This document shows positions 19,886 through 46,662 of a stretch of 64,000 bases of DNA, piece after piece (within the stretch, counting starts at the first letter, position 1; every line of letters begins with the position of its first letter). The stretch is from IMG/VR virus record IMGVR_UViG_3300027759_000048. The stretch is one strand, 5' to 3'. Below the pieces are notes generated by a model. It had not been told where the DNA came from and did no database searches. It saw only the letters and a program-made list of their open reading frames with translations. A program made the translations under genes and the position numbers. This stretch comes from a virus.

Positions 19886-22800
19886 ATGTCAATCAAGATC
19901 ACAACCGGCGGTGGTGACAAGCTAAATGTCACAACCACACCTAAGAATAGAATTACATTAACAACTGGCGGTGGCGGCTCAATGGCCGGTGCGGCTCTTA
20001 TCACTGATCTTCCTCCAATTTGGTACCATGCCAACGGTGCTGCTAACGTAGCAAACTATGCCTACGCTTCATCTAATTCTAATTGGGTTGTTCAAAATCT
20101 AATCTATAGCACAGTTAATGTCAGCTATACAATGGGCAATGCTGCCTATGTTTGCTTGAATGCTGCTTATGGTACTGTCAATGCTGTCTATGCTTCATCT
20201 AATTCCAATTGGCAAGTTCAAAATGTAGTTTACTCTACTGTAAATGCTAACTACGTTATGGCTAATGCGAGTTATGTTGCGCTCAACACGGCATATGATA
20301 CCGTCAACGCCGTATATGCTTCAGGAAACTCTAACTGGGTTGTCCAGAATGCTCTTTATACATTAGCTAATACCATCTATGACTCTTCTGTTTCTAACTG
20401 GACAGTTCAGAATGCAATATATTCAACAGCAAATGCTGCCTATGTTATGGGTAATGCAGCGTATGCCACGATTAATGCTAACTACGCTTCATCTAATTCT
20501 AATTGGGTCGTTCAAAACGCATTATATTCTACCACCAATTCTAACTATGTTATGGGCAATGCCGCATATGCTACTATCAATGCGGTGTATGCTTCATCAA
20601 ACTCAAACTGGACAGTCCAGAACGCAGTATTTGGATTAGCAAACACAATATACGCATCATCCAACTCCAATTGGACTGTGCAGAATGCTCTATTCACACT
20701 AGCAAACACAATCTATGCTTCATCTAATTCAAACTGGACAGTCCAGAACTTAGTATATGCCACAGTCAATGCCAACTATGTCATGGCAAATGCTGGCTAT
20801 ACCACACTAAATGCTGCTTATGACACAGTTAATGCCGTTTACGCATCATCTAACTCTAATTGGACAGTTCAAAACCTAGTTTATGCTACCGTAAATGCTA
20901 ATTATGTTATGGGTAATGCTTCTTACGAGGCACTAAATGCTGCTTATGATACAGTTAATGCCACTTATGCTTCTAGCAACTCTAACTGGGTCGTTCAAAA
21001 CGCTCTTTACGATCTAACAAATACTGTTTATGCTTCATCTAATTCCAATTGGGTTGTCCAAAATGCTGTTTATGACCTTACCAATACCATTTACGCATCA
21101 TCTAACTCTAACTGGGTTGTTCAAAATCTAGTTTACGCTACAGTCAATGCTGCTTATACACTAGCCAATGCTGCTTATTCTAATGCTAACTCACTAGCAA
21201 TTGCTGCTAATGCTTGGTCCAATCATGTTGGTCTATCTGCCAATAGCTATGCTGGCTTTATGGCCAATAGCTCTAACATCTATACCGAAGCAACCTATGT
21301 AAAACTAATCGCACCGTCACAATTGATTGATGGCGACATTGGTATCACTGGTAATCTTACAATCTCAGGTGCTGTAACATACGCCAATACAAGACAGCTA
21401 CAAGTCGGCGATAATATCATCACATTGAATGCTGATTTGCCAATGGATGTGATGGCAATTGATAATGCTGGTCTTGAAGTCAATAGAGGCAATCACAACT
21501 CTAATGCCGCTCTATTGTGGATGGAAGTTGATGGTAAGTGGGCAATCACAGGTAACGTTTCACAAACAATCAATACCTTCATATCATCAAACACTGATCT
21601 CGGTAAAGTATTAGATACAGTCAACGCTAATTATGCCTCTGCCAATTCTAACTGGACTGTCCAGAACTTAGTATATGCCACAGTAAACGCAAACTACGTT
21701 ATGTCTAATGCTGCTTATGTAGCATTGAACTCAGCCTATGATACAGTCAACGCCAATTACGCATCATCAAATTCAAACTGGGTTGTTCAAAATCTAGTAT
21801 ATGCTACTGTTAATGCTTCATACGTTATGGGTAATGCTTCTTATGAGGCACTTAATGCTGCTTACGGAACAGTCAATGCTGTATATGCTTCATCTAATTC
21901 CAACTGGACAGTTCAAAATCTAGTATATGCTACTGTTAATGCCAACTATGTCATGGCAAACGCAGGATACAATACACTCAATGCTGCCTACGATACTGTC
22001 AATGTCACTTATGCTTCTGCCAATTCAAACTGGCAGGTACAGAATGCTATCTACGATTTAACTAACACAGTTTACGCATCAAGCAACTCTAATTGGGTTG
22101 TCCAGAATGCTGTCTATGATTTAGCTAATACAATCTACGCTTCTAGCAATTCCAACTGGACAGTTCAGAACCTAGTTTACGCTACTGTAAATGCCAACTA
22201 TGTTATGGCAAATGCCAACTATGATCTAACGAATGCTGCTTACGCTTCTGGTAATTCCAACTGGCAAGTTCAAAATGCTCTATACGATCTTACCAATACT
22301 GTATATGCTTCTTCCAACTCTAACTGGGTTGTCCAGAATGCTATCTACGATTTAACAAATACAGTTTACGCTTCGTCTAATTCCAATTGGACTGTTCAGA
22401 ATCTCGTATATGCGACAGTAAATGCTTCTTACACACTAGCGAATGCTGCTTATGCTAATGCTAATGCTGTGTCTATTGGAGCAAACACATGGGCTAATAC
22501 AGTCGGTTTATCAGCCAATAGCTATGCTGGCTTTATGGTCAATAGCTCCAATTCATATGCTGATGCAACATATCTAAAACTAACATCACCGTCACAGACA
22601 ATCACTGGTGATCTGTCTATCACTGGTAACGTTTTCTTACTTGGCAATGCAACATCTATTGCTGCTAACAACGTTGTTATCAACGATCCAGTAATCTATC
22701 TTGCTGCTAACAATGATCAAGGCGATGTTTTAGATATTGGTTTTATTGGTAACTATAGCAACGGAACAGCAAATCTTCATACTGGTCTTTATAGAGATCA

Positions 22801-25800
22801 TGCTAATAAGCAGTATTACCTCTTTGTTGAACATGCCGGTCCAGATCCATCAACAACAAACGAACTTATTCCATATGCAAATGGAATGATCAATGCGGTT
22901 CTCAACACTGATCTAATCACAAGCAACATCTATCTTGGCGGCGCTAACGCTATTCATACAATTACTGGCGCCTTTGATAAAGCAAATGCTGCTTATAACA
23001 ATGCTAATGTTGGATTTGCTGCGGCTAATGCTTACTCAAATGCTACTGGTACTGCTGGTAACAACTATGCCTCTATTCTAGCAGCAAACAACGCAGTTGG
23101 AGCTAACAACTGGGCTAATACAGTCGGTATTGCTGGTAATAACTACACCGATCACGTCGGTCTATCTGTCAATATCTATACATCAATACTAGCTGCCAAT
23201 AATGCTGTCGGTGCTAATGCTTGGGCAAATACAGTAGGAACTGCTGGAAACAACTACACAGACCACGTTACTCTTTCTGGTAATACCTACGCTTCTATAC
23301 TAGCTGCTAACAATGCTATTGGTGCTAACAACTGGGCTAACACTGTAGGCACAGCAGGTAATAATTATACTAACTATGTCGGCGCTTCAGCTAACAGCTA
23401 TGCTACTGCGACATACGCTACACTATCAAACGTAGCACAGGTATACCAGACAACAAACATTTCGTTTGATACTGCTAACGCTGCTTATGCCGCTGCTAAC
23501 AATGTGGCTCCACAGGTTACACCATCATACAATACTGCTAACAATGCTTATCTAACAGCAAACGCAGCATTTGGTCATTCCAATCTTACCTATGATGCTG
23601 TCAATTCTGTATTCACTGTAGCCAACGCTGCTTATAACAGTGCTAATGTGGGTCTTGCTTCAGCTAATGCTTGGACAAACACAGTTGGAGCATCTGCTAA
23701 TTCTTATGCTCTTACTACAGCAACCAATATTGGAACTGCTGGTAATAACTATACTAACTATGTTGGCGCATCTGCTAACGCATTCGCTGATGCCACATAC
23801 TATAAGAAGACTGGTGGATTGATCTCTGGTGATGTAGGTATCACTGGTAATCTAACAATCTCTGGCACAACAACATATGCTAACACTCAGCAACTACAGA
23901 TTGGGGATAATATCCTTACTCTTAATGCTGATTTACCAATGTCAGTTATGCCAATTGACAATGCTGGTCTTGAAGTCAATCGTGGTAATCTAAGTTCCAA
24001 TGCTGCTTTACTCTGGATTGAAACCGCTGGACAGTGGAGTATTTCAGGTAATATAGCACAAACAGTTACCACATACATTGCTTCCAATACACTAGTTGAA
24101 CAATATGCCTCTGCTGGTAATGCTTATACACAGCAAGTAGGAGCCGCTGGTAATAACTATACTAACTATGTTGGTGCTTCTGTCAATGCTTATGCTACCG
24201 CTACCTATGCGACACAATCAAATGTTGCTATCATATACAACACATCTAACGTAGCATTTGATACAGCTAACGCCGCTTATGCTTCTGCCAATAACGTAGC
24301 ACCTCAAGTAGAGCCAGCTTTTAGAACTGCTAACAATGCTTATCTAACTGCTAATGCTGCCTTTGCTAAAGCAAACGTTGGTGGAGCTAATGTTGCTTCT
24401 ACACCGCCAACAAGTCCTACAAATGGACAGCTATGGTGGGATACTGTTACTGGTAGATTGTTTATCTATTATAATGATGGTAATACCTCACAGTGGGTAG
24501 AAACAACACCTACACCAGAAATTGATACTGGATATTATCATCTAACAAATGTAGCATTCAATACTGTAAATGTTGCTTATGCTTCTATCAATTCCAATTG
24601 GACAGTAACAAACACTGTTTATGATGTTGCCAATGCCGCATTTGCTTCAGCTAACAATGTTGCTCCTCAGATTCACCCAAGTTATACAACAGCAAATCTA
24701 GCATTCTTTAATAGTAATGCGGCATTCAGACACGCCAACGCAGCATTTGATTCAGCTAACAATGTAGCGCCGCAAGTAACACCTAGCTATAACACAGCTA
24801 ACAATGCTTACAATACTGCCAATGCAGCTTTTGATAAAGCAAACAATGCTCTTGCTAATACAACTGGTGTTACATTTGCCGGCAATCTAAAGTTCTCTGG
24901 TTCAGCAACCGCTAACAATGGATTCTTTTCATTACACGATTACAGAGGTTCATTCTCTGATGGTATCGTAGTTGATTATGTAAACGGTAGAGGTCGTATC
25001 AGTGTCGGTGCTAACGATGCTATGACATTCTACAATGGTGGTGTTGGAACTATACCAATTCTAACATTGTCACAGTATGGCTTCATTGGAATTGGTAATA
25101 CAAATCCAACTTATCCAGTTACCATATCTGGAAACGGCGCACCGATAACCACACTTGCTGGTGCCATCTTCAGTGCAGAGAGTTCAGAAAACGGACCAGT
25201 TCAGCTAAACATTCGCAATGCTGGCACAAGTCCTGCATCATCTGGTGACCTTGTTGTTACCGCTGATGATGGTAATGATGTCAGCAACTTTATCAATTTT
25301 GGTATCAACGGTTCTAACTATGCACAACCTGGTTGGACAATCAATGGTGCAAGAGACGGTTATCTCTATACATCAAATAGCAATCTAGCAATTGGTACTG
25401 CTAACTCAACTGCTCTTAAATCACTATCATTCTTCGTCGGTGGCACACTTGCTGGTAATGAAGTATTACGCATTCAAGATAGTGCAAGCGGTGCCAATAT
25501 CGGTGTCGGTAGAACTGATCCAAATTATAAACTTGATATTGTTGGAACAGTTAATGCTTCTAACATTCTCATCAATGGCGTTCCAATTGGCACAGCTTCG
25601 GTTAAGGTTCAGAACACCGCACCAATTCTTCCTGCTGGCGGTAATCTGTGGTGGGATAATGATTCAGGTAAACTTTATATCTACTACATTGATCAAGATT
25701 CGGCGCAATGGGTTGAGGCTGCTCCAGAAGCACCTGGTATTGATCTTAGTATTCTAATACCAACTAATCAGTTGGCCAACGCAGCTTATAATACTGCTAA

Positions 25801-26287
25801 TGCTGCCTTTGATAAAGCTAATAATAGTGGTGCTAATGTAGGACAAACTGCTCCTACTGTTGATCTCACAGTCGGTAAACTTTGGTGGAACTCTGACCTT
25901 GGTAAGATGTTCGTTTACTATACTGATCCAGCGAATACAAGTTCATGGGTTGAAATATCACCTTCTGTATCATCAATTGAAGGCGCTATCGTTACAGGTT
26001 ATATCAATCCTGTTTATGATGTTGCTAATGCTGCTTTCGATGCTACTAACAATAAGGTACAAATCAGTAGTATTGCGCCTGTCAATCCAACAGCAGGAAC
26101 ATTGTGGTGGAATAAAGATTATGGTAGATTACTTGTTTACTATACAGATGTGGATTCATCTCAGTGGGTTGATACATCACCATCCTACGACACATCACCT
26201 ATATATAATACAGCGAACGCCGCATACGATAAAGCGAATAGTGGATCATCATTGTCACTTGCTTATGCTGTAGCACTTGGAATGTAA
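19886..26287 (+). CDS. Giant fiber/scaffold protein (2133 aa): heptad arrays, knob domains and four 'WW..YY.D..WV' modules
   Basis: About 21 YASSNSNWxVQN repeats; duplicated GDIGITGNLTISG..GDNI.TLNADLP knob; GIGNTNP fiber motifs; C-terminal AYAVALGM. Confidence 0.85.
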   Translation: MSIKITTGGGDKLNVTTTPKNRITLTTGGGGSMAGAALITDLPPIWYHANGAANVANYAYASSNSNWVVQNLIYSTVNVSYTMGNAAYVCLNAAYGTVNAVYASSNSNWQVQNVVYSTVNANYVMANASYVALNTAYDTVNAVYASGNSNWVVQNALYTLANTIYDSSVSNWTVQNAIYSTANAAYVMGNAAYATINANYASSNSNWVVQNALYSTTNSNYVMGNAAYATINAVYASSNSNWTVQNAVFGLANTIYASSNSNWTVQNALFTLANTIYASSNSNWTVQNLVYATVNANYVMANAGYTTLNAAYDTVNAVYASSNSNWTVQNLVYATVNANYVMGNASYEALNAAYDTVNATYASSNSNWVVQNALYDLTNTVYASSNSNWVVQNAVYDLTNTIYASSNSNWVVQNLVYATVNAAYTLANAAYSNANSLAIAANAWSNHVGLSANSYAGFMANSSNIYTEATYVKLIAPSQLIDGDIGITGNLTISGAVTYANTRQLQVGDNIITLNADLPMDVMAIDNAGLEVNRGNHNSNAALLWMEVDGKWAITGNVSQTINTFISSNTDLGKVLDTVNANYASANSNWTVQNLVYATVNANYVMSNAAYVALNSAYDTVNANYASSNSNWVVQNLVYATVNASYVMGNASYEALNAAYGTVNAVYASSNSNWTVQNLVYATVNANYVMANAGYNTLNAAYDTVNVTYASANSNWQVQNAIYDLTNTVYASSNSNWVVQNAVYDLANTIYASSNSNWTVQNLVYATVNANYVMANANYDLTNAAYASGNSNWQVQNALYDLTNTVYASSNSNWVVQNAIYDLTNTVYASSNSNWTVQNLVYATVNASYTLANAAYANANAVSIGANTWANTVGLSANSYAGFMVNSSNSYADATYLKLTSPSQTITGDLSITGNVFLLGNATSIAANNVVINDPVIYLAANNDQGDVLDIGFIGNYSNGTANLHTGLYRDHANKQYYLFVEHAGPDPSTTNELIPYANGMINAVLNTDLITSNIYLGGANAIHTITGAFDKANAAYNNANVGFAAANAYSNATGTAGNNYASILAANNAVGANNWANTVGIAGNNYTDHVGLSVNIYTSILAANNAVGANAWANTVGTAGNNYTDHVTLSGNTYASILAANNAIGANNWANTVGTAGNNYTNYVGASANSYATATYATLSNVAQVYQTTNISFDTANAAYAAANNVAPQVTPSYNTANNAYLTANAAFGHSNLTYDAVNSVFTVANAAYNSANVGLASANAWTNTVGASANSYALTTATNIGTAGNNYTNYVGASANAFADATYYKKTGGLISGDVGITGNLTISGTTTYANTQQLQIGDNILTLNADLPMSVMPIDNAGLEVNRGNLSSNAALLWIETAGQWSISGNIAQTVTTYIASNTLVEQYASAGNAYTQQVGAAGNNYTNYVGASVNAYATATYATQSNVAIIYNTSNVAFDTANAAYASANNVAPQVEPAFRTANNAYLTANAAFAKANVGGANVASTPPTSPTNGQLWWDTVTGRLFIYYNDGNTSQWVETTPTPEIDTGYYHLTNVAFNTVNVAYASINSNWTVTNTVYDVANAAFASANNVAPQIHPSYTTANLAFFNSNAAFRHANAAFDSANNVAPQVTPSYNTANNAYNTANAAFDKANNALANTTGVTFAGNLKFSGSATANNGFFSLHDYRGSFSDGIVVDYVNGRGRISVGANDAMTFYNGGVGTIPILTLSQYGFIGIGNTNPTYPVTISGNGAPITTLAGAIFSAESSENGPVQLNIRNAGTSPASSGDLVVTADDGNDVSNFINFGINGSNYAQPGWTINGARDGYLYTSNSNLAIGTANSTALKSLSFFVGGTLAGNEVLRIQDSASGANIGVGRTDPNYKLDIVGTVNASNILINGVPIGTASVKVQNTAPILPAGGNLWWDNDSGKLYIYYIDQDSAQWVEAAPEAPGIDLSILIPTNQLANAAYNTANAAFDKANNSGANVGQTAPTVDLTVGKLWWNSDLGKMFVYYTDPANTSSWVEISPSVSSIEGAIVTGYINPVYDVANAAFDATNNKVQISSIAPVNPTAGTLWWNKDYGRLLVYYTDVDSSQWVDTSPSYDTSPIYNTANAAYDKANSGSSLSLAYAVALGM
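20050..22470 (+). repeat. Two coding tandem arrays (about 12 + 9 units of 21, 35 or 42 aa) with heptad pattern aromatic-x-x-x-N-x-x
   Basis: Read from the translation; DNA copies differ at synonymous positions; boundaries approximate. Confidence 0.9.
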
Positions 26288-26296
26288 GGAACCAAA

Positions 26297-29239
26297 ATGG
26301 CAAAGAAGTTAATTAAATCATATGTTTTCACACCGGGAGCGGCGGGAGTGGGATCCGTTGTTATTCCAGGCAAGGTGTCTATTGAAGATTTGTTGCTAGT
26401 TACTAACGTAACAAGAAACGTCATTATCTATAACTTCGGTGCTCCTGAATTTATTGGAACAACAGTTGTCTATACTGCCGCTGATACTGCTTTGTTCACA
26501 AATCTTCTTCAGAAAGAAGCTGGTTATACAACTATTACTCTTGCTTACAATACATCAACCCATAGTGCTACAGACAAACTACAAGTATTCGTAGAAGATT
26601 CAAAAGACGGTGTTAAGATTAGACCATGGGCATTTGGTACTGACGCCATTGAACGTATTCGTGTAGCAAATCCACAGTCAATGATTGACGCCGACTTTGA
26701 ATACGGTCTACAGCCTACGAAGTGGGCAGGTTACGGCACAATTCGTGGTTATCCTTCAACATACGAATTGCCAGGTATCGATCTAACAGTAACCACAGTT
26801 ACCACAGACTTCAATGCTACAAGTTCAACAAACAGTGTAATTACAGCAACATTCGATTCTGCTCATGGTATGGTCGCAGGTCAAGTTATTTGTATGACAA
26901 GTTTGAATCCTGCTGTTGTTGGTTTCAGTAGAGCGGCAGGTAACTTTATCATCAACTCAGTGCCATCTTCTACATCCGTCACATACTTTGCTAAAGGTAT
27001 TGTAGGAACATTCAACGGTCAAAATTTGTTTATCACCTCTACACTAGCAAAAAGAGGTGCTCTCTACTCGGTATCAGAAATCGTTGTTAAAGATGCCACA
27101 TCATCTGGTGCGATTCCTTCTGTTATGACGATCAATTTTAATGCTCCTCATGGACTTCTACCAGGTACACAGATATATGCTAACGTTGGATCTGGTAACT
27201 ATGCCAACCTAGCAACTGGTCCGTTTGTTATTACAAGCGTACCGTCACAAAACTCTTTCATCTATACTGCCAGAACAGGAGCAGCAGTTGCTTCTCCAGC
27301 TTTGATGAATGTTTATGCGTTCAACTCATCATCTATTGTCCATCGACCACAAGACGGTGGTGTTGTTCTTGAAACAGGAACACCGACATATGGTGCTGTC
27401 GCAGTTCGTCAGACTAAAAAGTATTTCCGTTATCAATCTGGTAAAGGTTATTTCTGGTCAACTGGTACATTGTTTAAACCAAACTATGACGTTCAATCTA
27501 TTACCTCCAGTGGTCTAGGCATTGGTTCTACTGTAACAGTAACCACAGATAATATCGATCATGGTTTACAACCTGGTGCGATTATTAGATTAAACAGTGT
27601 ATTGACATCTGGTTATAACGGAACATATACCGTCACTAGTATCGTAAGTGACTATTCTTTCACCTTTACTGCTACACAAAATCTTGGTGCCACTAGTGCG
27701 GTGCTTGATATTGATTGTAGAGTTTATATTGACAGATGGACTGGCGCTTGTGTTAGAGCCGGTATGTTTGACGATCAGAACGGTATTTTCTGGGAGTTCG
27801 ATGGTAATAGACTTTATGTGGTTAGAAGATCATCCACGGCACAGGTTACTGGTACAGTTTCAGCAACATTAAACAGCAGTCTTATTACAGGAACAAGCAC
27901 AAGATTTACTCAGCAACTTAAAGCTGGTGATAAGGTCATGATTAGAGGTATGACACACTTTATTTCATATGTTGCGGATGATATAACCGCATACATTACA
28001 CCAGATTATCGTGGTGTTACTGCTACAGGTATTAAAGCAAGTATGATTAGAGAGTTGAGAATTCCTCAGAATGAATTTAACGTTGATACTATCGACGGTA
28101 ACGGTCCTAGTGGATACAACATCGATCTAAACAAAATGCAGATGATGGCTATTCAGTTCTCATGGTACGGCGCTGGCTTCATTGATTACATGGTTCGTGG
28201 TTCAGATGGTAACTTCTTAACAGCACATCGTATCAAAAACAATAACGTCAATGACGAATCCTATATGCGTTCTGGTAACTTGCCTGTTCGTTATTCTATC
28301 GAGAATGACTGTCCAGTTAGTTTCTTGACTACTGCTATGAATGCTACACAGAATACTATTCCAATCAAAGAAACTAAGTTCTTTCCTAATACGGGCATCG
28401 TTTATATTGACAATGAAATCATTAGTTATAATGGTAAGAGCACTACATCTGGTACAGGTAATCTGACGAATGCTGTTAGAAACTTTACTATGTCACAGTA
28501 TCAATCCGGATCATCATATAATCTAACAGCGGGAGCTAACGTTGCTCACTCAGCCGCTAACGGCGTTATTATGATTCAGACAACTTGTAGTCCGACACTC
28601 AATCACTGGGGTTCTGCTCTTATTCTTGACGGTGGGTTTGACTCGGAACGTGGTTACATCTTCAACTATCAAAGAATTAACATGCCGCTTACAACTACAG
28701 CGCAGACGGCGTTCGTTATTCGTCTTGCTCCATCAGTTGAAAACTCACAGATTGGTCCATTGGGTTCTAAGACATTGCTCAATCGTTCTCAGTTGCTACT
28801 AGAAGAAGTCGGTGTTGCTGTCTCCGGCGGTTCATCATCACCTTTAGTTGGTAACATTATTATTGAAGGTATTCTCAATCCTAAGAACTTTAGTAATGCT
28901 ACATGGACAGCATTGAACACAGAGTCCGTGGGTGGACAGCCAAGTTTCGCTCAGGTTTCTCAGACTGTTATTTGGTCAACTATCGGTGCTGGTCCATCTT
29001 CTGGTGTTCAGTATGCTATTCCTGGTGAGCAGGTGTTCGCTTTCGCTGGTCAGGCAACTACATCAGGCGCTGTTAGTGATCGTCTTGACATCGGTAAACT
29101 AAAAGAGTTGACGGGTGCTCCACTTGGTGGTGACTTTAAGTATCCTGACGGCTCTGATATTCTAGCAATCAATATTAGAACGACATCAGGTACAGCGAAC
29201 GCCGCACTTGTTTTGCGATGGTCAGAAGCACAGGCATAA
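26297..29239 (+). CDS. Large virion structural/fiber-associated protein
   Basis: MAKKLIKSYVFTP start; PQSMIDADFEYGLQPTKW; RQTKKYFRYQSGKG; FSWYGAG; HG-initiated beta repeats. Confidence 0.75.
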   Translation: MAKKLIKSYVFTPGAAGVGSVVIPGKVSIEDLLLVTNVTRNVIIYNFGAPEFIGTTVVYTAADTALFTNLLQKEAGYTTITLAYNTSTHSATDKLQVFVEDSKDGVKIRPWAFGTDAIERIRVANPQSMIDADFEYGLQPTKWAGYGTIRGYPSTYELPGIDLTVTTVTTDFNATSSTNSVITATFDSAHGMVAGQVICMTSLNPAVVGFSRAAGNFIINSVPSSTSVTYFAKGIVGTFNGQNLFITSTLAKRGALYSVSEIVVKDATSSGAIPSVMTINFNAPHGLLPGTQIYANVGSGNYANLATGPFVITSVPSQNSFIYTARTGAAVASPALMNVYAFNSSSIVHRPQDGGVVLETGTPTYGAVAVRQTKKYFRYQSGKGYFWSTGTLFKPNYDVQSITSSGLGIGSTVTVTTDNIDHGLQPGAIIRLNSVLTSGYNGTYTVTSIVSDYSFTFTATQNLGATSAVLDIDCRVYIDRWTGACVRAGMFDDQNGIFWEFDGNRLYVVRRSSTAQVTGTVSATLNSSLITGTSTRFTQQLKAGDKVMIRGMTHFISYVADDITAYITPDYRGVTATGIKASMIRELRIPQNEFNVDTIDGNGPSGYNIDLNKMQMMAIQFSWYGAGFIDYMVRGSDGNFLTAHRIKNNNVNDESYMRSGNLPVRYSIENDCPVSFLTTAMNATQNTIPIKETKFFPNTGIVYIDNEIISYNGKSTTSGTGNLTNAVRNFTMSQYQSGSSYNLTAGANVAHSAANGVIMIQTTCSPTLNHWGSALILDGGFDSERGYIFNYQRINMPLTTTAQTAFVIRLAPSVENSQIGPLGSKTLLNRSQLLLEEVGVAVSGGSSSPLVGNIIIEGILNPKNFSNATWTALNTESVGGQPSFAQVSQTVIWSTIGAGPSSGVQYAIPGEQVFAFAGQATTSGAVSDRLDIGKLKELTGAPLGGDFKYPDGSDILAINIRTTSGTANAALVLRWSEAQA

Positions 29240-35631: not shown

Positions 35632-35632
35632 A

Positions 35633-38409: not shown

Positions 38410-39399
38410 ATGGCTATTATAGACTTTCCATCAAACCCAACTAATGGGCAGACATATAACCAGAATGGTGTTAGCTATTATTACAATGCTGCTATTGGCG
38501 CATGGTTGACTCAAATCACATCTACAGAGTTATCATCAACCGCTGCTAACAATCAGGTATTGTTCGTTGATGGTGGCTTATCAAACGGAACATCTGGACT
38601 AGTCTATACTAAAGCAGCGAATACATTGTTTGCTAATGGTGTCGTCGCTAATACAATGGTTACTGACCGCCTTCATGTGAATGTTCTTTCTGGCAGCGGA
38701 CTGAACCCAACGAATAACGCTATCGTTGCTGCCTTTGATAGAGCTAATAACTCACTACAAAACACCAGCTTTACTCTAAATGGTGACTTAACTGTAAGCG
38801 GCACGGTTAACACAAACATCAATATCAATGCTACTAGACTAAGATCAAACATCATTCAAAGTTCTACAGGCACAGACTTTATGATTGATGGTTATCCTAG
38901 AATGCCAGGACAGATCATTCAGGTTGTCAATACATATTATAGAACTCCAACGTCTCTATCAATTCCAGCTAGTTACAACACATATACAGATGTTCCTGGT
39001 ATATCAGCAACTATCACTCCTAGAAGTTCTAGTAGTAAAATCTATATGACGGTTAGATGGTTTGGTGAATGGAATGGCGCAGGATTGACTTGGGAAGCTA
39101 TGTTCAACATCAAAAGAAACGGCACCGTTGTCGGACTACCTGATCCTAATGGAACAAATACCCTGGGTATTCATATGGCTGCTTTATCTTATTATGCAGG
39201 AGGCGACGCCGACAGCACGCCAGAAACTTGTTTTTTTGATTATTATGATTCTCCAGCAACGACATCAGCATTGACATATCAATTAGCAATTGCTTCATTT
39301 ACTGCCGGTACAATGTTTATCAATAGATGCGTTAATGCTTCGGCGGGTAACAGTTATGAAAGAGGCACAAGTTCAATCACACTATTTGAGATATCATAA
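38410..39399 (+). CDS. Fiber with plug N-terminus and 'GQIIQVV...SSITLFEI' tip domain
   Basis: MAIIDFPSNPTNGQTY; ITPRSSSSKI...DSPATTSALTY. Confidence 0.75.
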   Translation: MAIIDFPSNPTNGQTYNQNGVSYYYNAAIGAWLTQITSTELSSTAANNQVLFVDGGLSNGTSGLVYTKAANTLFANGVVANTMVTDRLHVNVLSGSGLNPTNNAIVAAFDRANNSLQNTSFTLNGDLTVSGTVNTNININATRLRSNIIQSSTGTDFMIDGYPRMPGQIIQVVNTYYRTPTSLSIPASYNTYTDVPGISATITPRSSSSKIYMTVRWFGEWNGAGLTWEAMFNIKRNGTVVGLPDPNGTNTLGIHMAALSYYAGGDADSTPETCFFDYYDSPATTSALTYQLAIASFTAGTMFINRCVNASAGNSYERGTSSITLFEIS

Positions 39400-39418: not shown

Positions 39419-39748
39419 ATGGCACTTAATTTTCCAAACTCACCTACTAATGGACAAGTCTATGTTGACGGCACATCAGGAAGTCGTTATGTCTATGATG
39501 CGGCTAATGGTAGATGGAACTCAAATACATACGTTCAATCTATTCTAGGTGGTTTCTATGCTGGTAACAATGGTGAAGTTGGGCAAGCGCCGTCACTAGG
39601 TGATATCTTTAGATTACACACTAACACACTAACATCAAACGTTACGATCTATTCAGGCAACAATGCTATATGTGCCGGTCCCCTAAATATCACAGGAAAT
39701 AATACTACACTAACTATTCAGTCGGGATCTAGGGTGGTAATCGTATAA
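39419..39748 (+). CDS. Minimal fiber adaptor (plug fused directly to the AGPL..TIQSGSRVVIV module)
   Basis: MALNFPNSPTNGQVY; C-terminus paralogous to 29249..29998. Confidence 0.7.
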   Translation: MALNFPNSPTNGQVYVDGTSGSRYVYDAANGRWNSNTYVQSILGGFYAGNNGEVGQAPSLGDIFRLHTNTLTSNVTIYSGNNAICAGPLNITGNNTTLTIQSGSRVVIV

Positions 39749-41013
39749 TGTCAACTTTATCCGTATCAAATATCACCACACCATCTAATACGACACCGCT
39801 CGTTCTTTCATCAGCGAATAGTCAGGCTGCTTTTGTTAGAGTAGAGGCAGCTAACAATGATATTGTCTTTGGTGGAACAACTAAGTTTCTAGGAACATTC
39901 TCATCAGCAGGTCTTCAATCAAATAGTATAAATGTTGCTTTTGATGTTGCTAATGCTTCATTCAATATTGCTAACACAGTATCGGCCGCCGTAGTATCAG
40001 CTTCTTTCAATACAGCTAATGCGGCATATGGTTTAGCTAATACATCTTCAGCTTCTCTCGGCTCTAACTGGGCTGTCACTAATACTGTCTATGGTGTAGC
40101 CAACGCAGCTTTCGCCTCTGCTAATAACGTAGCGCCACAAGTCACACCAGCTTTCAATACAGCTAATGCAGCATACAGCTACGCTAATGCGGCATTCTCA
40201 TCTCTCAGTGCCTCTATCAATTCCAACTGGACAGTCACCAATACTGTCTATGGCGTTGCTAATACTGCTTTACCAAATACAAGTAGTGTTACGCTTGCAG
40301 GTGCTTTGACATTATCGACAACAGGTGTACCTCAGATAATCAATTCAAGCGATAGTAACACTTACAAAGTAGCATTGCGTAATAATGGCACAACCGTAGG
40401 ATTTTTTGGTGCGTCTTCTAGCAATCCGTTTATTGTTGCTAATAGCAGCGTGGCGACTTTGTTTAGTGTCGATAGTGTGGGCAACTTTGCTACAACAGGA
40501 ACACTGACTACATCATCTCGTGGTATTGCTAAAGCATCTATGCCTTCTGGTTCTATTCTACAAGTTCAACAGACATGGTGGGATGGAGTCGCAACTCTTG
40601 CTGTAAGTTCTTTTACCAATCATCCAAATCTATCAGTATCAATCACGCCAACATCCGCAACCAGTAAAGTATTAGTTATGATTTCAATGCAGGCTGTCGT
40701 CTATAACGTAACAATGCAGGCGAGATTTACTAGAAATGACACACCTATTGGAATTGCTGCCGCAGCAAGTTCAAGAGTTCTTTCTACCTTTGGTGGTCTC
40801 CAGACAATTGGCGATGGTAACCACCAGTTTACCCCATGGAATTATCAGTATCTCGATTCACCAGCATCAACATCCGCTTTGACATATAGAATACAATTAA
40901 AAATGCAGGGTGGTTCAACAGCATATCTTAACCGTTCAGTCAATGATGCCGATAACACCGACTGGGCGCAAAGAACAACATCATCTATAACAGTTATGGA
41001 AATAGCACAGTAA
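39748..41013 (+). CDS. Fiber with 'GSILQV...SSITVMEIAQ' tip domain
   Basis: MSTLSVSNI start; ANNVAPQVTP stalk; ITPTSATSKVL...DSPASTSALTY. Confidence 0.75.
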   Translation: MSTLSVSNITTPSNTTPLVLSSANSQAAFVRVEAANNDIVFGGTTKFLGTFSSAGLQSNSINVAFDVANASFNIANTVSAAVVSASFNTANAAYGLANTSSASLGSNWAVTNTVYGVANAAFASANNVAPQVTPAFNTANAAYSYANAAFSSLSASINSNWTVTNTVYGVANTALPNTSSVTLAGALTLSTTGVPQIINSSDSNTYKVALRNNGTTVGFFGASSSNPFIVANSSVATLFSVDSVGNFATTGTLTTSSRGIAKASMPSGSILQVQQTWWDGVATLAVSSFTNHPNLSVSITPTSATSKVLVMISMQAVVYNVTMQARFTRNDTPIGIAAAASSRVLSTFGGLQTIGDGNHQFTPWNYQYLDSPASTSALTYRIQLKMQGGSTAYLNRSVNDADNTDWAQRTTSSITVMEIAQ

Positions 41014-41046
41014 TATGAAGAGAATAAATATCCTAAAGGGTAATCA

Positions 41047-42708
41047 ATGTCAATTCTAAGAGTAGCAAACGTTCAGTTTAACGCCTCAGGCACCAGACGT
41101 ATCGATTACGATTCTGTGGCTGATGATGGTATCATTAAAGTATCAGCGGCTGCCATTAGACTACCTGTAGGTGATACTGCTTCTCGTCCTAATTCACAAG
41201 CTGGTATGATACGCTACAATAGTGATACAGGTTACGTTGAGTTTGGTGGTAATACTAACTGGATTCCTGTTGCTTCTAATGCTGCTTTTAATGTTGCCAA
41301 CGCTGCCTTTGCCTCAGCTAACAATGTTGCTCCGCAAGTAACACCTGCTTTTCTAACTGCTAACAATGCTTATGCTTCAATCAATTCTAATTGGACAGTA
41401 ACGAACGCCATATACGGTATAGCAAATACATCATTGACAACTAGTAATTATTTGACATATTCCTTTCCAAGAAGAGGCCTTAGTGTAAATCAAGGTAGTG
41501 ATTCAAACACTTATTACTATCTAATTGGTACCATTGGTAATAATAATGGTAATTTTCATGTTAGAGGAAATATAGGCGGACACGATGGTCCTGCTGGAGG
41601 AACACAAGGTGCTGCCTCTGTTGTAATTTCAATATTTTCAAGAGTTGGTAATATTCCTGTTCAAGGTCTTATCAATGGATCCATAGGTAACCAAGACCTT
41701 CAAGTTTATAAAGATTCAGGTAACAATGTCTATATATACGTTAAAAGTACCGCATATTCTCTAATTGATCTTCAATACAGCGATGCTGCTGGAGCGACTT
41801 CTTATTACTCTCCAACTGGATCTCAGACTACTCCAGTCTCTCTTGGATACACATTAACGTGGGCGGCCGCCAATAATCAAGGCAATTCAACCACATCTAC
41901 TGCAATCCAAGGAACTCTTAGTGCATCAAATCTTGGTGTTGGTAATACTACACCAGGTGCCGCAAAACTTCACATAACTGCCGCCAACACAATTGGTGGT
42001 ATCGGTTATGCAGATTTCTTGAGAGTAACAAACAACTCATATCCCGCTGTTACAAATCCTGTTAAAACTTTTAGACTGAACCAATCTGGTAGTTTTGAGA
42101 TTATCAATAACGCATATACTCAAGTTATTGCCGCTCTTGATGATACCGGTAACTTAGTTACTTCAGGAAATATAACATCATCTTCTCGTGGCATTGCAAA
42201 AGCATCAATGCCTGCTGGATCGGTATTACAAGCAGCATCTACTACAAAAACAGACACTTTTAGTACCGCAGTCAATATTTCCGCCTCAGGCGGTAGTTAT
42301 ACATCTACAGGCACAACTGTTACAGGATTATCGGTTACAATAACGCCTACTAGTTCTACAAGTAAAATTTTAGTCATGGTTAATTTGAATGGTATGGGAA
42401 CACCCGGTGTTGCTCAATTGTATTGTTTATTATACAGAGATTCTACATTAATCGGAAATCCATCTCCGGTTAGTGCTAGACCCGGTGTAATGGCAAGAAC
42501 TCATTCTGAAAATGGTGTCATTGTAGTAGGAACTTGTTCTTTTTCTCATCTGGATTCTCCGGCGACCACATCAGCAGTAACATATTCAGTAAAAGTTGGG
42601 GGTGAAAACTCCGGAACGGTTTATGTGAATAGATCATATTCTGATGGCGACTCTACTAATGGAGCTAGAATGTCCAGCACAATCACCGTTATGGAGATCG
42701 CTCAGTAA
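41047..42708 (+). CDS. Fiber with 'GSVLQA...STITVMEIAQ' tip domain
   Basis: LPVGDTASRP...GMIRYNSD; tip paralogous to 39748..41013. Confidence 0.75.
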   Translation: MSILRVANVQFNASGTRRIDYDSVADDGIIKVSAAAIRLPVGDTASRPNSQAGMIRYNSDTGYVEFGGNTNWIPVASNAAFNVANAAFASANNVAPQVTPAFLTANNAYASINSNWTVTNAIYGIANTSLTTSNYLTYSFPRRGLSVNQGSDSNTYYYLIGTIGNNNGNFHVRGNIGGHDGPAGGTQGAASVVISIFSRVGNIPVQGLINGSIGNQDLQVYKDSGNNVYIYVKSTAYSLIDLQYSDAAGATSYYSPTGSQTTPVSLGYTLTWAAANNQGNSTTSTAIQGTLSASNLGVGNTTPGAAKLHITAANTIGGIGYADFLRVTNNSYPAVTNPVKTFRLNQSGSFEIINNAYTQVIAALDDTGNLVTSGNITSSSRGIAKASMPAGSVLQAASTTKTDTFSTAVNISASGGSYTSTGTTVTGLSVTITPTSSTSKILVMVNLNGMGTPGVAQLYCLLYRDSTLIGNPSPVSARPGVMARTHSENGVIVVGTCSFSHLDSPATTSAVTYSVKVGGENSGTVYVNRSYSDGDSTNGARMSSTITVMEIAQ

Positions 42709-44390
42709 TGTCAACCCTTAGCGTTCAAACCATCAGAGACATTCGTAGTATGGATTTCAGCAACACAGAGTTCGCTGGTGCGTATAATGCTTCTAATGCT
42801 GCGTTCAATTCTGCCAATCTTTCTTATAACGCACAAAATGTTGTGTTTGCTGTTGCTAATGCTTCTTATAACTCCGTCAATTCTAATTGGACAGTTACTA
42901 ATACTGTATATGGTGTTGCTAACGCTGCCTTTGCTTCAGCTAACAATGTAGCACCACAAGTAACACCTGCGTTTAATACAGCCAACTTAGCCTATGCTAA
43001 AGCTAACTCAGCATTACCAAACACAACTAATGCTGTGTTTCAAGGCAATCTAACAATCACCGGCGCATTGACTATCGGTCAGAATACAGTAACAATCACA
43101 GAAACCTCGCTAAATGTAGCTAATGGATTGTTTGTTACCAAAGATTACATGACAATACCAACCGGTAATACTGCTCAGAGACCGTCAGGCGCAATGCCAG
43201 GTATGATGAGATTTAACACAGAAACGGGTTATCTCGAACAATATTCACAAGGTTCGTGGTCGAGTATTTCAACACCACCAGTGATTTCAAATGTAACACC
43301 ATCATCATTTAGCGGTGAAACTGGTACCACATTTACTATCAATGGATCAAATTTTGACGGATCACCTGTAGTAAAATTTATCACTAATGGTGGCACAGAA
43401 TACTTCGCATCAGTAACAACTAGAGTTAGTGCTTCTCAATTAACAGCAACTACTCCACAAGATTTTACTATTGCTAATGAACCTCTCAAAGTAAAAGTTA
43501 TTAATGCTAGTGGTTTGTCTTTTGTATTGGATTCAGCTATTGATTGTGGTGGTGTTCCTGCCTGGGCTAATTCATCTGGTTCATTAGGATCCACAATAGG
43601 TGGTATAGGTTCTGGTGTTTTGGCAACAGCAAATGCGACTGATCCAGATATTGGTGCTACTTTATCATATTCATTAACCTCAGGATCTCTACCAGCAGGT
43701 TGTTATCTAGGTTCATCAAACGGTAACATCTTTGGTACAACAACATTTTCAGAAAGCAATACTACATATAGTTTTACATTAACAGCAACAGATAATGCCG
43801 GCAATCAAACACCACGCAGTTTCTCTTTCTTGGTGGAAAGAGGTGTAGAATCTGGTGGGGGATTGGGATATCTATCGCAATTTGCGGACAAAACCGTTGC
43901 TAATAATATTACAAACACTGGCATGACACTCTATTATGCTAATGCTCAAGCGGCAAGTCCGAATAGTCCAACAAATTGGTTAAATTATAGTTATGGCAAT
44001 TTCGCAATTCATACAGGTCATGATGGTGTTAAACCAACATATCTGTGTTTCAACTTAACAGGCGGAACGCCTCGTGCTCTAAATAGATTTCGCTGGGTTA
44101 AACATGCTAATGCTTGTGGTAATATTGATTTTTATGGATCAAATCAAAACATTACTAGCGGTAACTATCAAACTATTGGTAATTGGACATATCTAGGTCG
44201 TGGTCATATGGGTGGTTCAGGTTCAGAGGGTGATGGTACCGTAAAAACAGCAGCCTTCAATTCAAGTCGATATGGTTATCGTTGGTATATGGTTCTTGTT
44301 AGAGATATTGGTGGTTCACTTGCTTATCCGTCTGAGGGTAACATGGGTGGTTATGCTATGTATGGAGCAACATTCGATTATGTTGCTTAA
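42708..44390 (+). CDS. Fiber with Ig-like (IPT/TIG and He_PIG-like) domains and a putative discoidin-like C-terminal domain
   Basis: IPTGNTAQRP..GMMRFN; PVISNVTPSS...FTINGSNF; ATDPD...YSLTSGSLPAG; YRWYMVLV. Confidence 0.7.
   Translation: MSTLSVQTIRDIRSMDFSNTEFAGAYNASNAAFNSANLSYNAQNVVFAVANASYNSVNSNWTVTNTVYGVANAAFASANNVAPQVTPAFNTANLAYAKANSALPNTTNAVFQGNLTITGALTIGQNTVTITETSLNVANGLFVTKDYMTIPTGNTAQRPSGAMPGMMRFNTETGYLEQYSQGSWSSISTPPVISNVTPSSFSGETGTTFTINGSNFDGSPVVKFITNGGTEYFASVTTRVSASQLTATTPQDFTIANEPLKVKVINASGLSFVLDSAIDCGGVPAWANSSGSLGSTIGGIGSGVLATANATDPDIGATLSYSLTSGSLPAGCYLGSSNGNIFGTTTFSESNTTYSFTLTATDNAGNQTPRSFSFLVERGVESGGGLGYLSQFADKTVANNITNTGMTLYYANAQAASPNSPTNWLNYSYGNFAIHTGHDGVKPTYLCFNLTGGTPRALNRFRWVKHANACGNIDFYGSNQNITSGNYQTIGNWTYLGRGHMGGSGSEGDGTVKTAAFNSSRYGYRWYMVLVRDIGGSLAYPSEGNMGGYAMYGATFDYVA
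42709..42733 (+). repeat. 25-bp direct repeat, copy 1 (TGTCAACCCTTAGCGTTCAAACCAT)
   Basis: Identical to 44412..44436. Confidence 0.9.
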
Positions 44391-44411
44391 CACAGTAAAA
44401 GGAACAAACGT

Positions 44412-44436: not shown

Positions 44437-44446
44437 AGAGAGATAA

Positions 44447-46024
44447 ATGGCATTAGATTTTCCACCATCACCTTCCGACGGACAGATATTTGTAGATCCT
44501 ACATCAGGAAGTAAATATATCTATGTAGCTGCTACAACAAAATGGCAGTCAATCCAACACGTCGGTGTGATAGTAGCATATGGCTTTGATAAAGCTAATG
44601 CCGCATTCATAACTGCTAATGCCGCTTATGGCGCTGCTAACAATGTTGGACCGCAGCTTGCTCCAGCATTCAATACCGCTAATGCTGCTTTTGCTGTTGC
44701 CAACTCTGCTTTACCAAACGTAAGCAATACTGTGTTCGAGGGTAATCTAAGAATTACAGGCACATTATCAATCGGTACAAACACTGTAGTAATTACTGAT
44801 AACTCTATATCAGCACAATCTATCATTGTTGCAGGTTCACCTATTCCTTCTGGTGTAACATCCAATCTTGCTTTTGATACCGCTAATGCCGCATTTGCTT
44901 CAGCTAACAATGTTGCTCCTCAAATTGCTCCTGCTTTCAATACTGCTAATGCTGCCTTTGCTTCAGCTAACAATGTTGCACCACAAGTAACACCTGCTTT
45001 TCTAACTGCCAACTTAGCGTTTGCGGCTGCTAACAGTGCTAACATATACTCTAATAGTACCTATGTTAAACTAACATCATCAAGTCAGACAATTACCGGC
45101 GACCTTGCTATCACTGGCAATTTATCACTATTAGGTAATGTAACAACATTACGATCAAACAATCTGATTGTTAATGACTCGCTAATCTATCTTGCTGCCA
45201 ACAACGATCTTTCTGATATTATAGACATCGGCTTTGTTGGTAACTATAGCAACGGAACAGCCAATCTACATACAGGTCTTTTCAGAGATCATGCTACCAA
45301 ACAATATTTTCTATTCAACAATCTAGGTGGACCTGAACCAGAAACAATAAACGATATAATTCCATATGCGAACGGTATGATCAATGCTGTTCTTAATGCT
45401 GATGTCATCACAAGTAACCTTACACTTGGCGGTGCTAATGCTATAAATTGGATTACGGCAGCTTATACATCTTCCAATGCTGATTATGCTACAAGCAATG
45501 CGGCTTTTAATACTACTAATGCTGCTTTTGGTAGAGCTAACACCGCTTTACAGAATACCAGTGGTACACTTGCTGGCAGTTTAACTATTACAGGTAGTTT
45601 AGGTATTGGAACAGGCGCTTCCGCTAATACGGGTGAAATTAGAGCAACAAATAACATTACCGCTTACTATTCCGATGAACGTTTAAAGAATATCATATCA
45701 ACTATTCAATCACCGTTAGAGAAAGTAAATCAACTATCAGGCGTCATATACACTAACAATGATGTGGCTGCCTCATTTGGTTATACAGATATGTCGGAGC
45801 AAGTCGGACTACTTGCCGGACAAGTGCAAAAAGTTTTACCTCAGATTGTTAAGTCTGCACCATTTGATACTGAGTTTATAGATGGTGTAGAGGTGTCAAA
45901 GTCAGGTCAGAATTATAAGACTGTTCAATATGAAAAAGTAATACCGCTGTTAGTTGAAGCAATCAAAGAGCAGCAGAAACAGATTGAGGAACTAAAGACA
46001 CTAATCTCAAGAGAAGTTAAATGA
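44447..46024 (+). CDS. Tail fiber with plug N-terminus and C-terminal intramolecular chaperone (peptidase S74-like)
   Basis: MALDFPPSPSDGQIF; YYSDERLKNI...GLLAGQVQKVLP...VQYEKVIPLLVEAIKEQQKQIEELK. Confidence 0.85.
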   Translation: MALDFPPSPSDGQIFVDPTSGSKYIYVAATTKWQSIQHVGVIVAYGFDKANAAFITANAAYGAANNVGPQLAPAFNTANAAFAVANSALPNVSNTVFEGNLRITGTLSIGTNTVVITDNSISAQSIIVAGSPIPSGVTSNLAFDTANAAFASANNVAPQIAPAFNTANAAFASANNVAPQVTPAFLTANLAFAAANSANIYSNSTYVKLTSSSQTITGDLAITGNLSLLGNVTTLRSNNLIVNDSLIYLAANNDLSDIIDIGFVGNYSNGTANLHTGLFRDHATKQYFLFNNLGGPEPETINDIIPYANGMINAVLNADVITSNLTLGGANAINWITAAYTSSNADYATSNAAFNTTNAAFGRANTALQNTSGTLAGSLTITGSLGIGTGASANTGEIRATNNITAYYSDERLKNIISTIQSPLEKVNQLSGVIYTNNDVAASFGYTDMSEQVGLLAGQVQKVLPQIVKSAPFDTEFIDGVEVSKSGQNYKTVQYEKVIPLLVEAIKEQQKQIEELKTLISREVK

Positions 46025-46662
46025 CCATAAAGGCATCAGGTTCATCTTTGTCTATGAGCGAGATTAACGCTGAATTTGCTTTAGGTAACAATCTCAATTC
46101 TCATAGAGGCATCGGTTGGTACTTGGATAATGTTCAAAAAGGAACTTTTTCTTCTGGAGCTATATCTTTCAGCGACTTTTATTCTAAGAGAAAAACCACT
46201 CCAGTAACCGCAGGAAGTGCAACGGTTTCTGCAAGTGGTAACTATACTGTTCCTCTATATGAAACACTAACGGTTACTGTATATGGTGGAAGAGGTGGAC
46301 AATCCGGCACACAAGATAGTGGTTGCGCTGGTTTACAGGGTTCTGGTAATGGCGGTACAGGAGGTGCAAGTAGTTTTGGAGCATTTGCTTCAGCGGCTGG
46401 AGGAGCTGGTGGTAGCGGAAATTTAGTTTCTGGATCTCAACCGTCTTCAGTAACAGTTTTCACCAATCCACTAAACGGTGGAACTGGACCAGCGACAGGT
46501 GCTGTTGTTGCTGTAACTTGTGGCGGTGGTGGCAGTGGGGGTAGCGGAGCCCCACAATATCGAACAGTACCTTCTGGTTGTAGCACCGTTTGTTCCCTTG
46601 TTAGTTATGCAGCAGCGGGTGCTGCTGGAGCTACCGGATCCGTAGTTATAAGTTGGACTTAG
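46021..46662 (+). CDS. Tip adhesin partner of the S74 fiber (Gly-rich, Cys-containing)
   Basis: MTIKASGSSLSMSEINAEF...GAISFSDFYSK N-terminus; VYGGRGG...GSVVISW; ATGA overlap with the fiber gene. Confidence 0.75.
   Translation: MTIKASGSSLSMSEINAEFALGNNLNSHRGIGWYLDNVQKGTFSSGAISFSDFYSKRKTTPVTAGSATVSASGNYTVPLYETLTVTVYGGRGGQSGTQDSGCAGLQGSGNGGTGGASSFGAFASAAGGAGGSGNLVSGSQPSSVTVFTNPLNGGTGPATGAVVAVTCGGGGSGGSGAPQYRTVPSGCSTVCSLVSYAAAGAAGATGSVVISWT

Follow-up and report, generated by a model that had tools for sequence, protein, structure and literature searches.

How might a single phage hold on to six fibre proteins that all begin with the same short module? The question is raised by positions 19,886 to 46,662 of a 64,000-nt stretch of viral DNA (the window), read from the minus strand of an IMG/VR virus record of 81 kb (IMGVR_UViG_3300027759_000048; CheckV completeness 46%). 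This region is an unbroken block of fibre-like genes, all on the same strand, and two small modules recur within it. One, MA(L/I)xFPxxPxxGQxY...G..Y.Y....W, which we call the plug, heads six open reading frames (ORFs), named here by their first positions: 29249, 33528, 36813, 38410, 39419 and 44447. The other, PxxPxxGxLWW....G..h.YY.D...QWV(E/D)..P, the socket, is internal and also occurs six times, four times in a ‘giant fibre’ and once each in 33528 and 36813, the plug-and-socket proteins PS1 and PS2. The original prediction for this locus had placed all twelve modules correctly, and had proposed that plugs dock onto sockets to build a branched, receptor-binding tree. We think it probable, though far from assured, that plugs and sockets do dock in some geometry; the argument draws on co-variation, gene order, protein architecture and one weak structural model.

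The modules themselves are unmistakable. Each plug comprises residues 1–39 of its ORF, with M1, F, P, P, Q, G and W invariant. Hidden Markov models (HMMs) built from the six copies of each module score their own copies at 62–84 bits, and broader HMMs run over the whole 81-kb record find exactly six plugs and six sockets, besides two weak cross-matches of the socket profile to plugs. Recurrence of this order is far beyond chance. Among the PHROGs families only phrog_3304, whose label is uninformative, matches either module: its positions 112–170 of 177 align with the socket, four times in the giant fibre (1.5e-30). Pfam and NCBIfam returned nothing useful for the plug proteins and the giant fibre, and in the literature searched we found no earlier description of the motif in cyanophage fibres. 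The socket of one cyanophage protein, S-CRM01 gene 016 (L178:9740-10504, socket aa 38–67), matches Pfam DUF7360 below the threshold (E 0.0039, 39-position model), and that family may be a relative of the module.

Where the modules stand is as telling as what they look like. We gathered approximately 160 related loci and used HMMs to look for both modules in them: those at the N-terminus are of the plug type in 122 of 122 cases, and those in the interior are of the socket type in 214 of 215. Matches to the fibre modules (tblastn) come nearly all from Synechococcus and Prochlorococcus myoviruses (Kyanoviridae), but also from a T7-like cyanopodovirus and from Vibrio and Aeromonas phages; megablast found no near relative of the window among reference phages, and plug searches turned up no Klebsiella or Escherichia coli phage. 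The mechanism that this arrangement suggests is a simple one. The socket subtype (G.LW[WYF]....G..h.YY.D...QWV[ED]) would lie within the trimeric shafts of fibres that have a virion anchor of their own, its three chains most likely forming a knot that resembles a beta-prism II. The plug subtype (MA[LI][DN]FP..P..[GN][QD]) stands at the very start of fibre and tip proteins in which no other anchor is recognizable, and the plugs of one trimer would bind non-covalently to the socket knot of another fibre. In the window, the giant fibre with its four sockets, together with the two plug-and-socket adaptors, would then carry six plug proteins and a set of separate tips as a branched or segmented multi-receptor-binding assembly.

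If plugs dock onto sockets, their numbers might be expected to move together, as the original prediction supposed. They do so in most records and in the window’s own lineage, and fail to in eight records. Socket count equals plug count in 14 of 22 whole records, against 3.4 expected when plug counts are permuted (p<1e-5), and among genomes with at least three modules equality occurs five times against 1.3 expected (p=0.004); weighing against a strong claim, the genomes are related and were found by way of these same modules, the counts are not independent and several records are fragments, and so the p-values are indicative only. Equal counts (socket:plug) run from 6:6 in the window, through 5:5 in relative L091 and in G027 (100% complete), to 4:4 in G016 and G017 (the latter 100% complete), and on to 2:2 and 1:1 in further records that include S-CAM4, S-WAM2, S-RSM4, Vibrio phage D181 and Aeromonas phage TSW001. 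An alternative is that the modules are structural only. Sockets would be self-trimerizing knots that register or stiffen shafts, plugs would be an N-terminal knot that attaches elsewhere on the virion—to the baseplate, the collar, or the 980-aa protein encoded next to the giant fibre—and the counts would simply track the number of fibre genes. We consider this rather unlikely, though well short of negligible; exact equality at four, five and six is something it leaves unexplained.

The window’s lineage allows a closer look. Since PS1 and PS2 each add one plug and one socket, the equality reduces to a simpler one: the number of sockets in the giant fibre equals the number of plug-only genes. 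This is so for the window (4/4), L091 (3/3), G016 (2/2) and G017 (2/2). A single pairing fits all of the patterns of presence and absence, socket 1 going with the 44447-type gene, socket 2 with the 39419-type, socket 3 with the 38410-type and socket 4 with the 29249-type, and co-variation thus suggests which plug might occupy which socket. (Socket orthology was assigned by alignment, apart from the middle socket of L091, which is chimeric and was assigned by position.) With the counts equal, chance alone would yield a consistent pairing about 1 time in 6, by our own combinatorial estimate rather than a tool’s computation. One case was predicted ahead of inspection: the fourth plug of G017, which wraps around to the start of the contig, should have been of the 39419-type; it reads MALNFPTSPVDKQIYINTNTGAQYVYDAANTRW, and is. 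Three coordinated changes of socket and plug gene can be discerned in all, at loci approximately 20 kb apart.

There is also a tip that appears to have moved. The giant fibres of L091, L093 and G017 end in a tip domain of their own, and those of the window and L089 end in socket 4 followed by 29 residues, instead. The last 49 aa of the relatives’ tip reappear at the C-terminus of 29249—the protein that the pairing assigns to socket 4—at 63–69% identity (E 1e-18), although this 49-aa motif is common among fibres (phrog_5342, phrog_34255) and the match is supportive rather than decisive. What is fused to the giant fibre in the relatives thus seems to be a separate plug protein in the window, the outcome of something like a gene fission. 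A purely structural role for the modules accounts neither for the joint gain and loss of particular sockets and plug genes so far apart, nor for the G017 result, nor for a fused tip giving way to socket 4 and a plug-headed tip gene.

Other phages present the same elements in simpler form. Vibrio phage D181 encodes, in consecutive genes, a socket-only protein of 1204 aa, a plug-and-socket protein of 677 aa and a plug-only protein of 726 aa. S-CRM01 has two sets: in one, gene 016 is socket-only with a Collar domain, 011 has a plug and three sockets, and 012, 013 and 015 are plug-only; the other comprises proteins of 584 aa (socket), 381 aa (plug and socket) and 215 aa (plug). In G027, besides four plug-only genes, there are a socket protein of 188 aa and a protein of 909 aa that combines a plug with four sockets. 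Some socket-bearing roots have recognizable anchors of other kinds, Mtd_N with collagen in four IMG/VR phages and Phage_T7_tail in S-TIP28. The last of these, a T7-like podovirus, is the most instructive. Its 753-aa fibre has the T7 anchor at residues 6–103, a socket at 136–176, and then an endosialidase N-extension and a beta-helix; the next gene encodes a plug-headed tailspike resembling pectate lyase. If sockets were structural only, how this tailspike reaches the tail would be hard to say, the fibre being the only protein found with a recognizable T7-type tail anchor. A further S-TIP28 gene, gp55 (L189:1269-1616), is annotated as a 115-aa ‘structural protein’ and reads MSFPSNPSLGDQYTEAGTTYEWFG; since it, too, begins with a plug, S-TIP28 has two plug proteins and one detectable socket.

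Gene order points the same way. Of 117 plug genes, 43 begin within 300 nt downstream of a socket gene and 76 within 2 kb, counts that are biased upward by the choice of loci around sockets. The anatomy of certain relatives brings up another reading in which docking occurs solely end to end. The plug would be the remnant of a tandem array left by gene fission, and would stack co-axially on the last socket of the protein encoded upstream to form linear fibres, as in T4 gp34-35-36-37, with internal sockets unoccupied. In three relatives a socket at the extreme C-terminus is followed by a plug-headed gene (L018, residues 273–307 of 310; L040, 154–188 of 191; L044, 332–366 of 369). Socket 4 of the window, close to the end of the giant fibre, has as its proposed partner the bearer of the former tip; socket-type and plug-type modules alternate in single chains elsewhere; and D181 and one S-CRM01 set read naturally as linear chains. 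Many sockets with a plug gene downstream are nonetheless far from the C-terminus—136–176 of 753 in S-TIP28, 88–129 of 603 in L045, about 305–347 of 884 in TSW001—and sockets 1–3 of the window co-vary with plug genes even though 100–630 aa of fibre come after them. As the sole geometry we judge end-to-end stacking to be unlikely. Joints of the L018, L040 and L044 kind may, however, exist alongside lateral branches of the S-TIP28 kind on internal sockets.

Some sockets may sit on collar or whisker proteins rather than on tail fibres. S-CAM7 gp131 (L188, 92000-92533) is a 177-aa phrog_3304 protein with a C-terminal socket, encoded upstream of the neck gene gp13 with only a small hypothetical gene, gp132, between; we take this to correspond approximately to the position of fibritin (wac) in the T4 gene order.

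What kind of structure might do this? When the plug and socket profiles are aligned with each other by hhalign, the probability of homology is 88–90% (E 2e-6 to 3e-6, with six-copy profiles and with profiles of 54 and 70 sequences), and the alignment shares P..P..G-x-hydrophobic-aromatic ... G..aromatic-x-Y ... W. Plug and socket are two position-specialized subtypes of one antiparallel beta-meander of 35–45 aa and three to four strands. An AlphaFold2 model of 33528 residues 1–140 agrees (mean predicted local distance difference test, pLDDT, 66; means over 10-residue blocks mostly 75–83 for residues 1–80, and 69 for 31–40): each module is predicted to be a short antiparallel meander, with strands at 14–16, 23–27 and 32–36 in the plug and at 43–45, 57–60, 65–71 and 76–80 in the socket, and then comes a long helix. 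The best match to the socket among solved structures is domain D4 of the CBA120 tailspike TSP3 (5W6F 583-623; VIA Z 5.1, root-mean-square deviation 1.5 Å over 39 aa, 18% identity), and the next best are the trimerization domains of collagens XV and XVIII; such Z-scores are low in absolute terms, and Z 5 over 39 residues may mean only that the fold is small and common. TSP3 D4 is a three-stranded sheet, three chains of which form a beta-prism II about the trimer axis (PMC6517402). Foldseek against the Protein Data Bank (PDB) at E<=0.001 matched neither of the two models tried, that of 33528 and one of three tandem sockets folded as a single chain (pLDDT 69.5, predicted template modelling score 0.57), which showed only weak likenesses to propeller blades. 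No significant sequence match to TSP3 or to any solved structure was obtained with four profiles searched against the PDB; AP-2 appendage (E 0.024), phiKZ gp184 (E 0.037) and WW domains (E >0.5) were not significant and are not relied on.

In other phages sockets are found after collagen repeats, and those of the giant fibre stand between segments of coiled coil; a trimeric setting is implied only by these flanks. A three-chain knot in a trimeric shaft is the most economical structural reading that the models allow. It suits the idea of a purely structural role, too, as do the homology of plug and socket, the trimer-forming character of the nearest solved matches, and the siting of sockets between coiled coils. 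As an aside, the one near-significant PDB sequence match of the plug profile, phiKZ gp184 residues 69–102 (8Y6V chain I; VIA Z 4.4, 29% identity), is a small beta module that is wedged as a monomer between gp86 and a hexamer at the inner capsid vertex, which shows that such a module can serve as a protein–protein insert.

The likeness to beta-prism II calls to mind a third alternative, that these are lectin-like units, akin to beta-prism II or WW domains, that bind glycans or other ligands and add avidity, conservation of the N-terminal form then reflecting a tag for assembly or chaperone recognition. It was in a mannose-binding lectin that beta-prism II was first described (PMC6517402), there are the weak pattern matches to WW domains, and tandem arrays of the module occur in secreted bacterial proteins. 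We consider this very improbable. The receptor-binding parts of fibres are the quickest to vary, but in these proteins nothing is as conserved as the plug, which lies at the virion-proximal end, while the tips are swapped; and ligand binding predicts neither matching counts nor the adjacency of socket and plug genes. The proteins that resemble PS1 illustrate the point about conservation. Their plug-and-socket N-terminus is 58–99% identical in 37 of 41 database matches, joined to C-termini that are C1q, Gly_rich_2 or something else, the usual signature of a conserved attachment end with exchangeable tips.

One plug–socket pair was modelled as a complex, the giant fibre from residue 1975 to 2133 (sockets 3 and 4) with residues 1–60 of 29249, three copies of each. 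The prediction scored 0.60, against 0.33 for the best of three controls, with a pLDDT of 58 for the partner and agreement between runs in at least 61% of contacts. The pass mark is one that 58 of 80 solved complexes reach and only 2 of 110 mismatched pairs, but scores of 0.60 or less were obtained by only 7 of the 80, and by both of the mismatches that passed; furthermore, this job differed from the calibration in using shallow alignments of our own and each chain in several copies, and it returned no interface. Tried on this single pair, the structural check named in the original prediction came out above its controls, weakly, and shifts the odds only slightly toward docking.

Several observations weigh against docking, this frailty of the only structural test among them. 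Sockets outnumber plugs in six genomes (S-B68 8:2, MA10 14:9, S-CREM2 7:3, S-CRM01 8:6, G018 approximately 11:7, G024 5:4), the surplus often forming tandem arrays that repeat every 47 aa or so, as shaft knots might. Plugs outnumber sockets in S-TIP28 (1:2) and S-CAM7 (2:3), and the rule that plugs never exceed sockets was rejected on their account. A strict correspondence of one plug to one socket is not general. Searched against 1.84 billion representative sequences, the plug profile finds 17,450 clusters at E<=1e-3, among them tandem-repeat proteins; in the best 150 matches the module is at residue 1–4 in 110, but in 38 it forms internal tandem arrays, some of them in bacterial proteins with signal peptides. 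Plug-like cores therefore look like a generic fibre repeat, of which the N-terminal MA(L/I)(D/N)FP form is a specialization, and their occurrence as long repeats in unrelated proteins would suit a structural role. The socket’s best solved match trimerizes with itself, which comes near to what the original prediction held would undo it, and both modules could be purely structural. The counts also fit more than one layout. Should sockets 1–4 be taken up by the four plug-only proteins, no obvious socket would remain to anchor PS1 and PS2; if PS1 and PS2 are on the stalk, one-to-one pairing is not literal. The tree first proposed, with four plugs on the stalk and two on secondary sockets, may be one of several compatible layouts, end-to-end joints included.

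Not all of this tells against plug–socket docking as such. Because surplus sockets occur in tandem in several genomes, sockets must also be shaft elements, whatever plugs do; but a knot can be a shaft element and a docking site at once, and a single species of plug can fill several sockets. Docking as originally proposed, then, is upheld by co-variation, gene order, the relocated tip and the layout of S-TIP28, and weakened by the homology of the modules, their knot-like character and the surplus sockets.

The genes of the block, with their sockets, are collected in Table 1.

Table 1. Fibre genes and socket modules of the window, positions 19,886–46,662
Feature	Positions	Strand	Description
Giant fibre	19886-26287	+	2133 aa; no plug; probable root or stalk
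Socket 1	24395-24529	+	Giant fibre aa 1504-1548; 81 bits; orthologues in L091 and L093, none in G017
Socket 2	25610-25744	+	Giant fibre aa 1909-1953; orthologues in L089 and G017, none in L093
Socket 3	25844-25981	+	Giant fibre aa 1987-2032; in all five relatives
Socket 4	26066-26197	+	Giant fibre aa 2061-2104; 29 aa from C-terminus; replaces relatives’ fused tip domain
Virion structural protein	26297-29239	+	980 aa; phrog_5838, 822 bits; neither plug nor socket
Plug protein A	29249-29998	+	249 aa; plug aa 1-39; last 49 aa match C-terminal tip of relatives’ giant fibre
Three plug-less tip genes after A	30009-33164	+	Gly_rich_2 (30009-30713), C1q (31018-31605), RCC1 (31605-33164)
PS1 (plug and socket)	33528-34460	+	310 aa; plug aa 1-39, socket aa 45-89, then long helix
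PS1 socket	33660-33794	+	ORF 33528 aa 45-89
Three consecutive C1q-like tip genes after PS1	34460-36196	+	Starts 34460, 35035, 35633; 191, 198, 187 aa
PS2 (plug and socket)	36813-37619	+	268 aa; plug aa 1-40, socket aa 46-90
PS2 socket	36948-37082	+	ORF 36813 aa 46-90
Gly_rich_2 tip gene after PS2	37621-38385	+	Likely start ATG 37621, not 37543
Plug protein B	38410-39399	+	329 aa; tip matches phrog_6942, tail fibre
Plug protein C	39419-39748	+	109 aa; plug and short fibre-end motif
Three plug-less fibre genes after C	39748-44390	+	Starts 39748, 41047, 42708; N-termini of MS(T/I)L(S/R)V type
Plug protein D	44447-46024	+	525 aa; plug, coiled coil, Peptidase_S74 intramolecular chaperone

The giant fibre begins MSIKITTGGG... 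and has no match to an anchor family in Pfam or PHROGs; its C-terminal third is an Asn/Ala-rich, coiled-coil-like shaft broken by the four sockets. Among relatives found by way of the 980-aa protein, no record has more than one strong plug match at an N-terminus, and so they offer little for comparing counts; the 109-aa plug protein (39419) finds a single locus in IMG/VR. In an orthologue of PS1 (L093:9232-9462; G016:C1:7597-7863) there is an in-frame TAG shortly after the socket, which could mean that the gene is a pseudogene, that the sequence is in error or that the stop is recoded. Genes at 1679–9902, elsewhere in the window, match PHROGs of T4-type baseplate hub and wedge proteins (gp5/6/7/8-like).

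The tips are as varied as the original prediction had them, C1q, glycine-rich, RCC1 and SSITxxEI ends all being present; its ‘discoidin-like’ tip was not confirmed. C1q is found in 31018, 34460, 35035 and 35633, Gly_rich_2 in 30009 and 37543, RCC1 in 31605, a Pgp3-C-like domain in 41047, immunoglobulin-like domains (He_PIG/TIG) in 42708 and the S74 chaperone in 44447. ORF 37543 and the end of 36813 share 77 nt, and an in-frame ATG at 37621, two bases past the 36813 stop, gives MTGILGAMVGAG; this is the more likely start, because the Gly_rich_2 match (aa 39–240 of ORF 37543) is well downstream of it. A C-terminal SSIT(V/L)(M/F)EI is shared by 38410 and 39748, with a variant, SSTITVMEI, in 41047, three proteins whose N-termini differ. 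The plug-less genes 39748, 41047 and 42708 have a second class of N-terminus (MSTLSVSNI, MSILRVANV and MSTLSVQTI, respectively). In relatives, the PS1-type N-terminus runs straight on into a single domain, C1q or Gly_rich_2; in the window the C1q triplet is separate and comes after PS1, and triplets of plug-less genes likewise come after 29249 and 39419. Going by this arrangement, the phage of the window may have a heterotrimeric C1q head, attached by a second kind of non-covalent joint.

Just after the fibre block, at 46667–48979, are two genes whose products have Cys-rich motifs of the sort typical for radical-SAM/SPASM enzymes (47885, for example, has CQASCPMC close to its N-terminus). Their sequences hint that a virion or fibre protein is modified after translation.

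If docking of this kind is real, a single phage could display a dozen unrelated binding tips, and fibre architecture could be predicted from genomes and metagenomes by a rule legible in sequence: a root with sockets only, an adaptor with plug and socket, a leaf with plug only. More tentatively—and here we are in doubt ourselves—this self-homologous connector might be a general ‘Lego stud’ for the tail fibres of marine and freshwater phages (cyanomyoviruses, T7-like cyanopodoviruses, and Vibrio and Aeromonas phages among them), the pairing of subtypes encoding the topology of large branched adhesin trees. A new tip would then come with the joint acquisition of one socket and one plug-headed gene, a portable docking code for host-range evolution and for engineering. 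S-TIP28, S-CRM01 and Vibrio phage D181, all of them cultured, carry simple versions, and the docking idea is directly testable in them.

How does such an assembly compare with those already known? In the dual receptor-binding protein (RBP) systems of podoviruses such as Klebsiella phages KP32, K11 and KP34 and E. coli phages K1-5 and G7C, the primary RBP has a tail anchor at its N-terminus and then a docking element, and the secondary RBP has at its N-terminus only a short peptide, conserved and about 29 aa long, that is needed for its incorporation into the virion (PMC13352976). In KP32, RBP2 is no longer incorporated once RBP1 has lost its branching domain or RBP2 its 29-aa conserved peptide (PMC13352976). 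Leu2, Asp3, Phe5 and Asn6 at the start of the KP32 peptide (PMC13352976) bear a superficial likeness to MALDFP, on which we base no claim. S-TIP28 has the same order as KP32 and K1-5: a Phage_T7_tail anchor, a socket, a tailspike body, and then the gene for a plug-headed pectate-lyase tailspike. Six proteins of the window, like KP32-type secondary RBPs, have a short N-terminal module and no other recognizable anchor. The docking element, however, is a 45-aa beta-meander here, whereas theirs is a T4gp10-like XD2/XD3 domain of about 240 aa; plug and socket here are homologous to one another; and one stalk can have four sockets or more. Neither the giant fibre nor PS1 or PS2 gave a gp10-like match in Pfam, PHROGs or NCBIfam, and because that branching domain is the defining structural feature of the anchor-branch family, we would not count the window’s proteins as members; the likeness would be one of function.

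Phage CBA120 of the Ackermannviridae, with TSP1–4, likewise layers several RBPs on one baseplate-anchored protein, and its secondary RBPs can bear docking sites of their own, as PS1 and PS2 would. It does so by means of gp10-like XD domains, carried by TSP2 and TSP4, and its branches number four, in contrast to the six plug proteins and approximately a dozen separate tips of the window, an assembly that we infer from the genes. Domain D4 of its TSP3 (PDB 5W6F/6NW9, approximately 583–627) has the three-stranded antiparallel sheet per chain that the socket is predicted to have, but occurs at the C-terminal end of the tailspike and has no known docking role. In the long tail fibre of T4, the products of consecutive, separate genes (gp34-gp35-gp36-gp37) also assemble non-covalently, and the C-terminal socket and plug gene of some relatives resemble such a joint; T4’s joints are unrelated in sequence, linear and made with dedicated connector proteins, whereas here one family of modules would serve for all joints, internal ones included. 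The name given to PHROG 3304, ‘L-shaped tail fiber protein assembly’ (S-CAM7 gp131, for example), is an untested annotation that the socket matches, and is silent on mechanism. If docking is borne out, the principle of branching domain and conserved peptide, already validated by experiment, would be extended to a second connector, much smaller and far more widespread. Smaller than those of the anchor-branch systems, homologous to itself and multiplied along one stalk, the pair we describe is probably a new docking pair for a logic already known.

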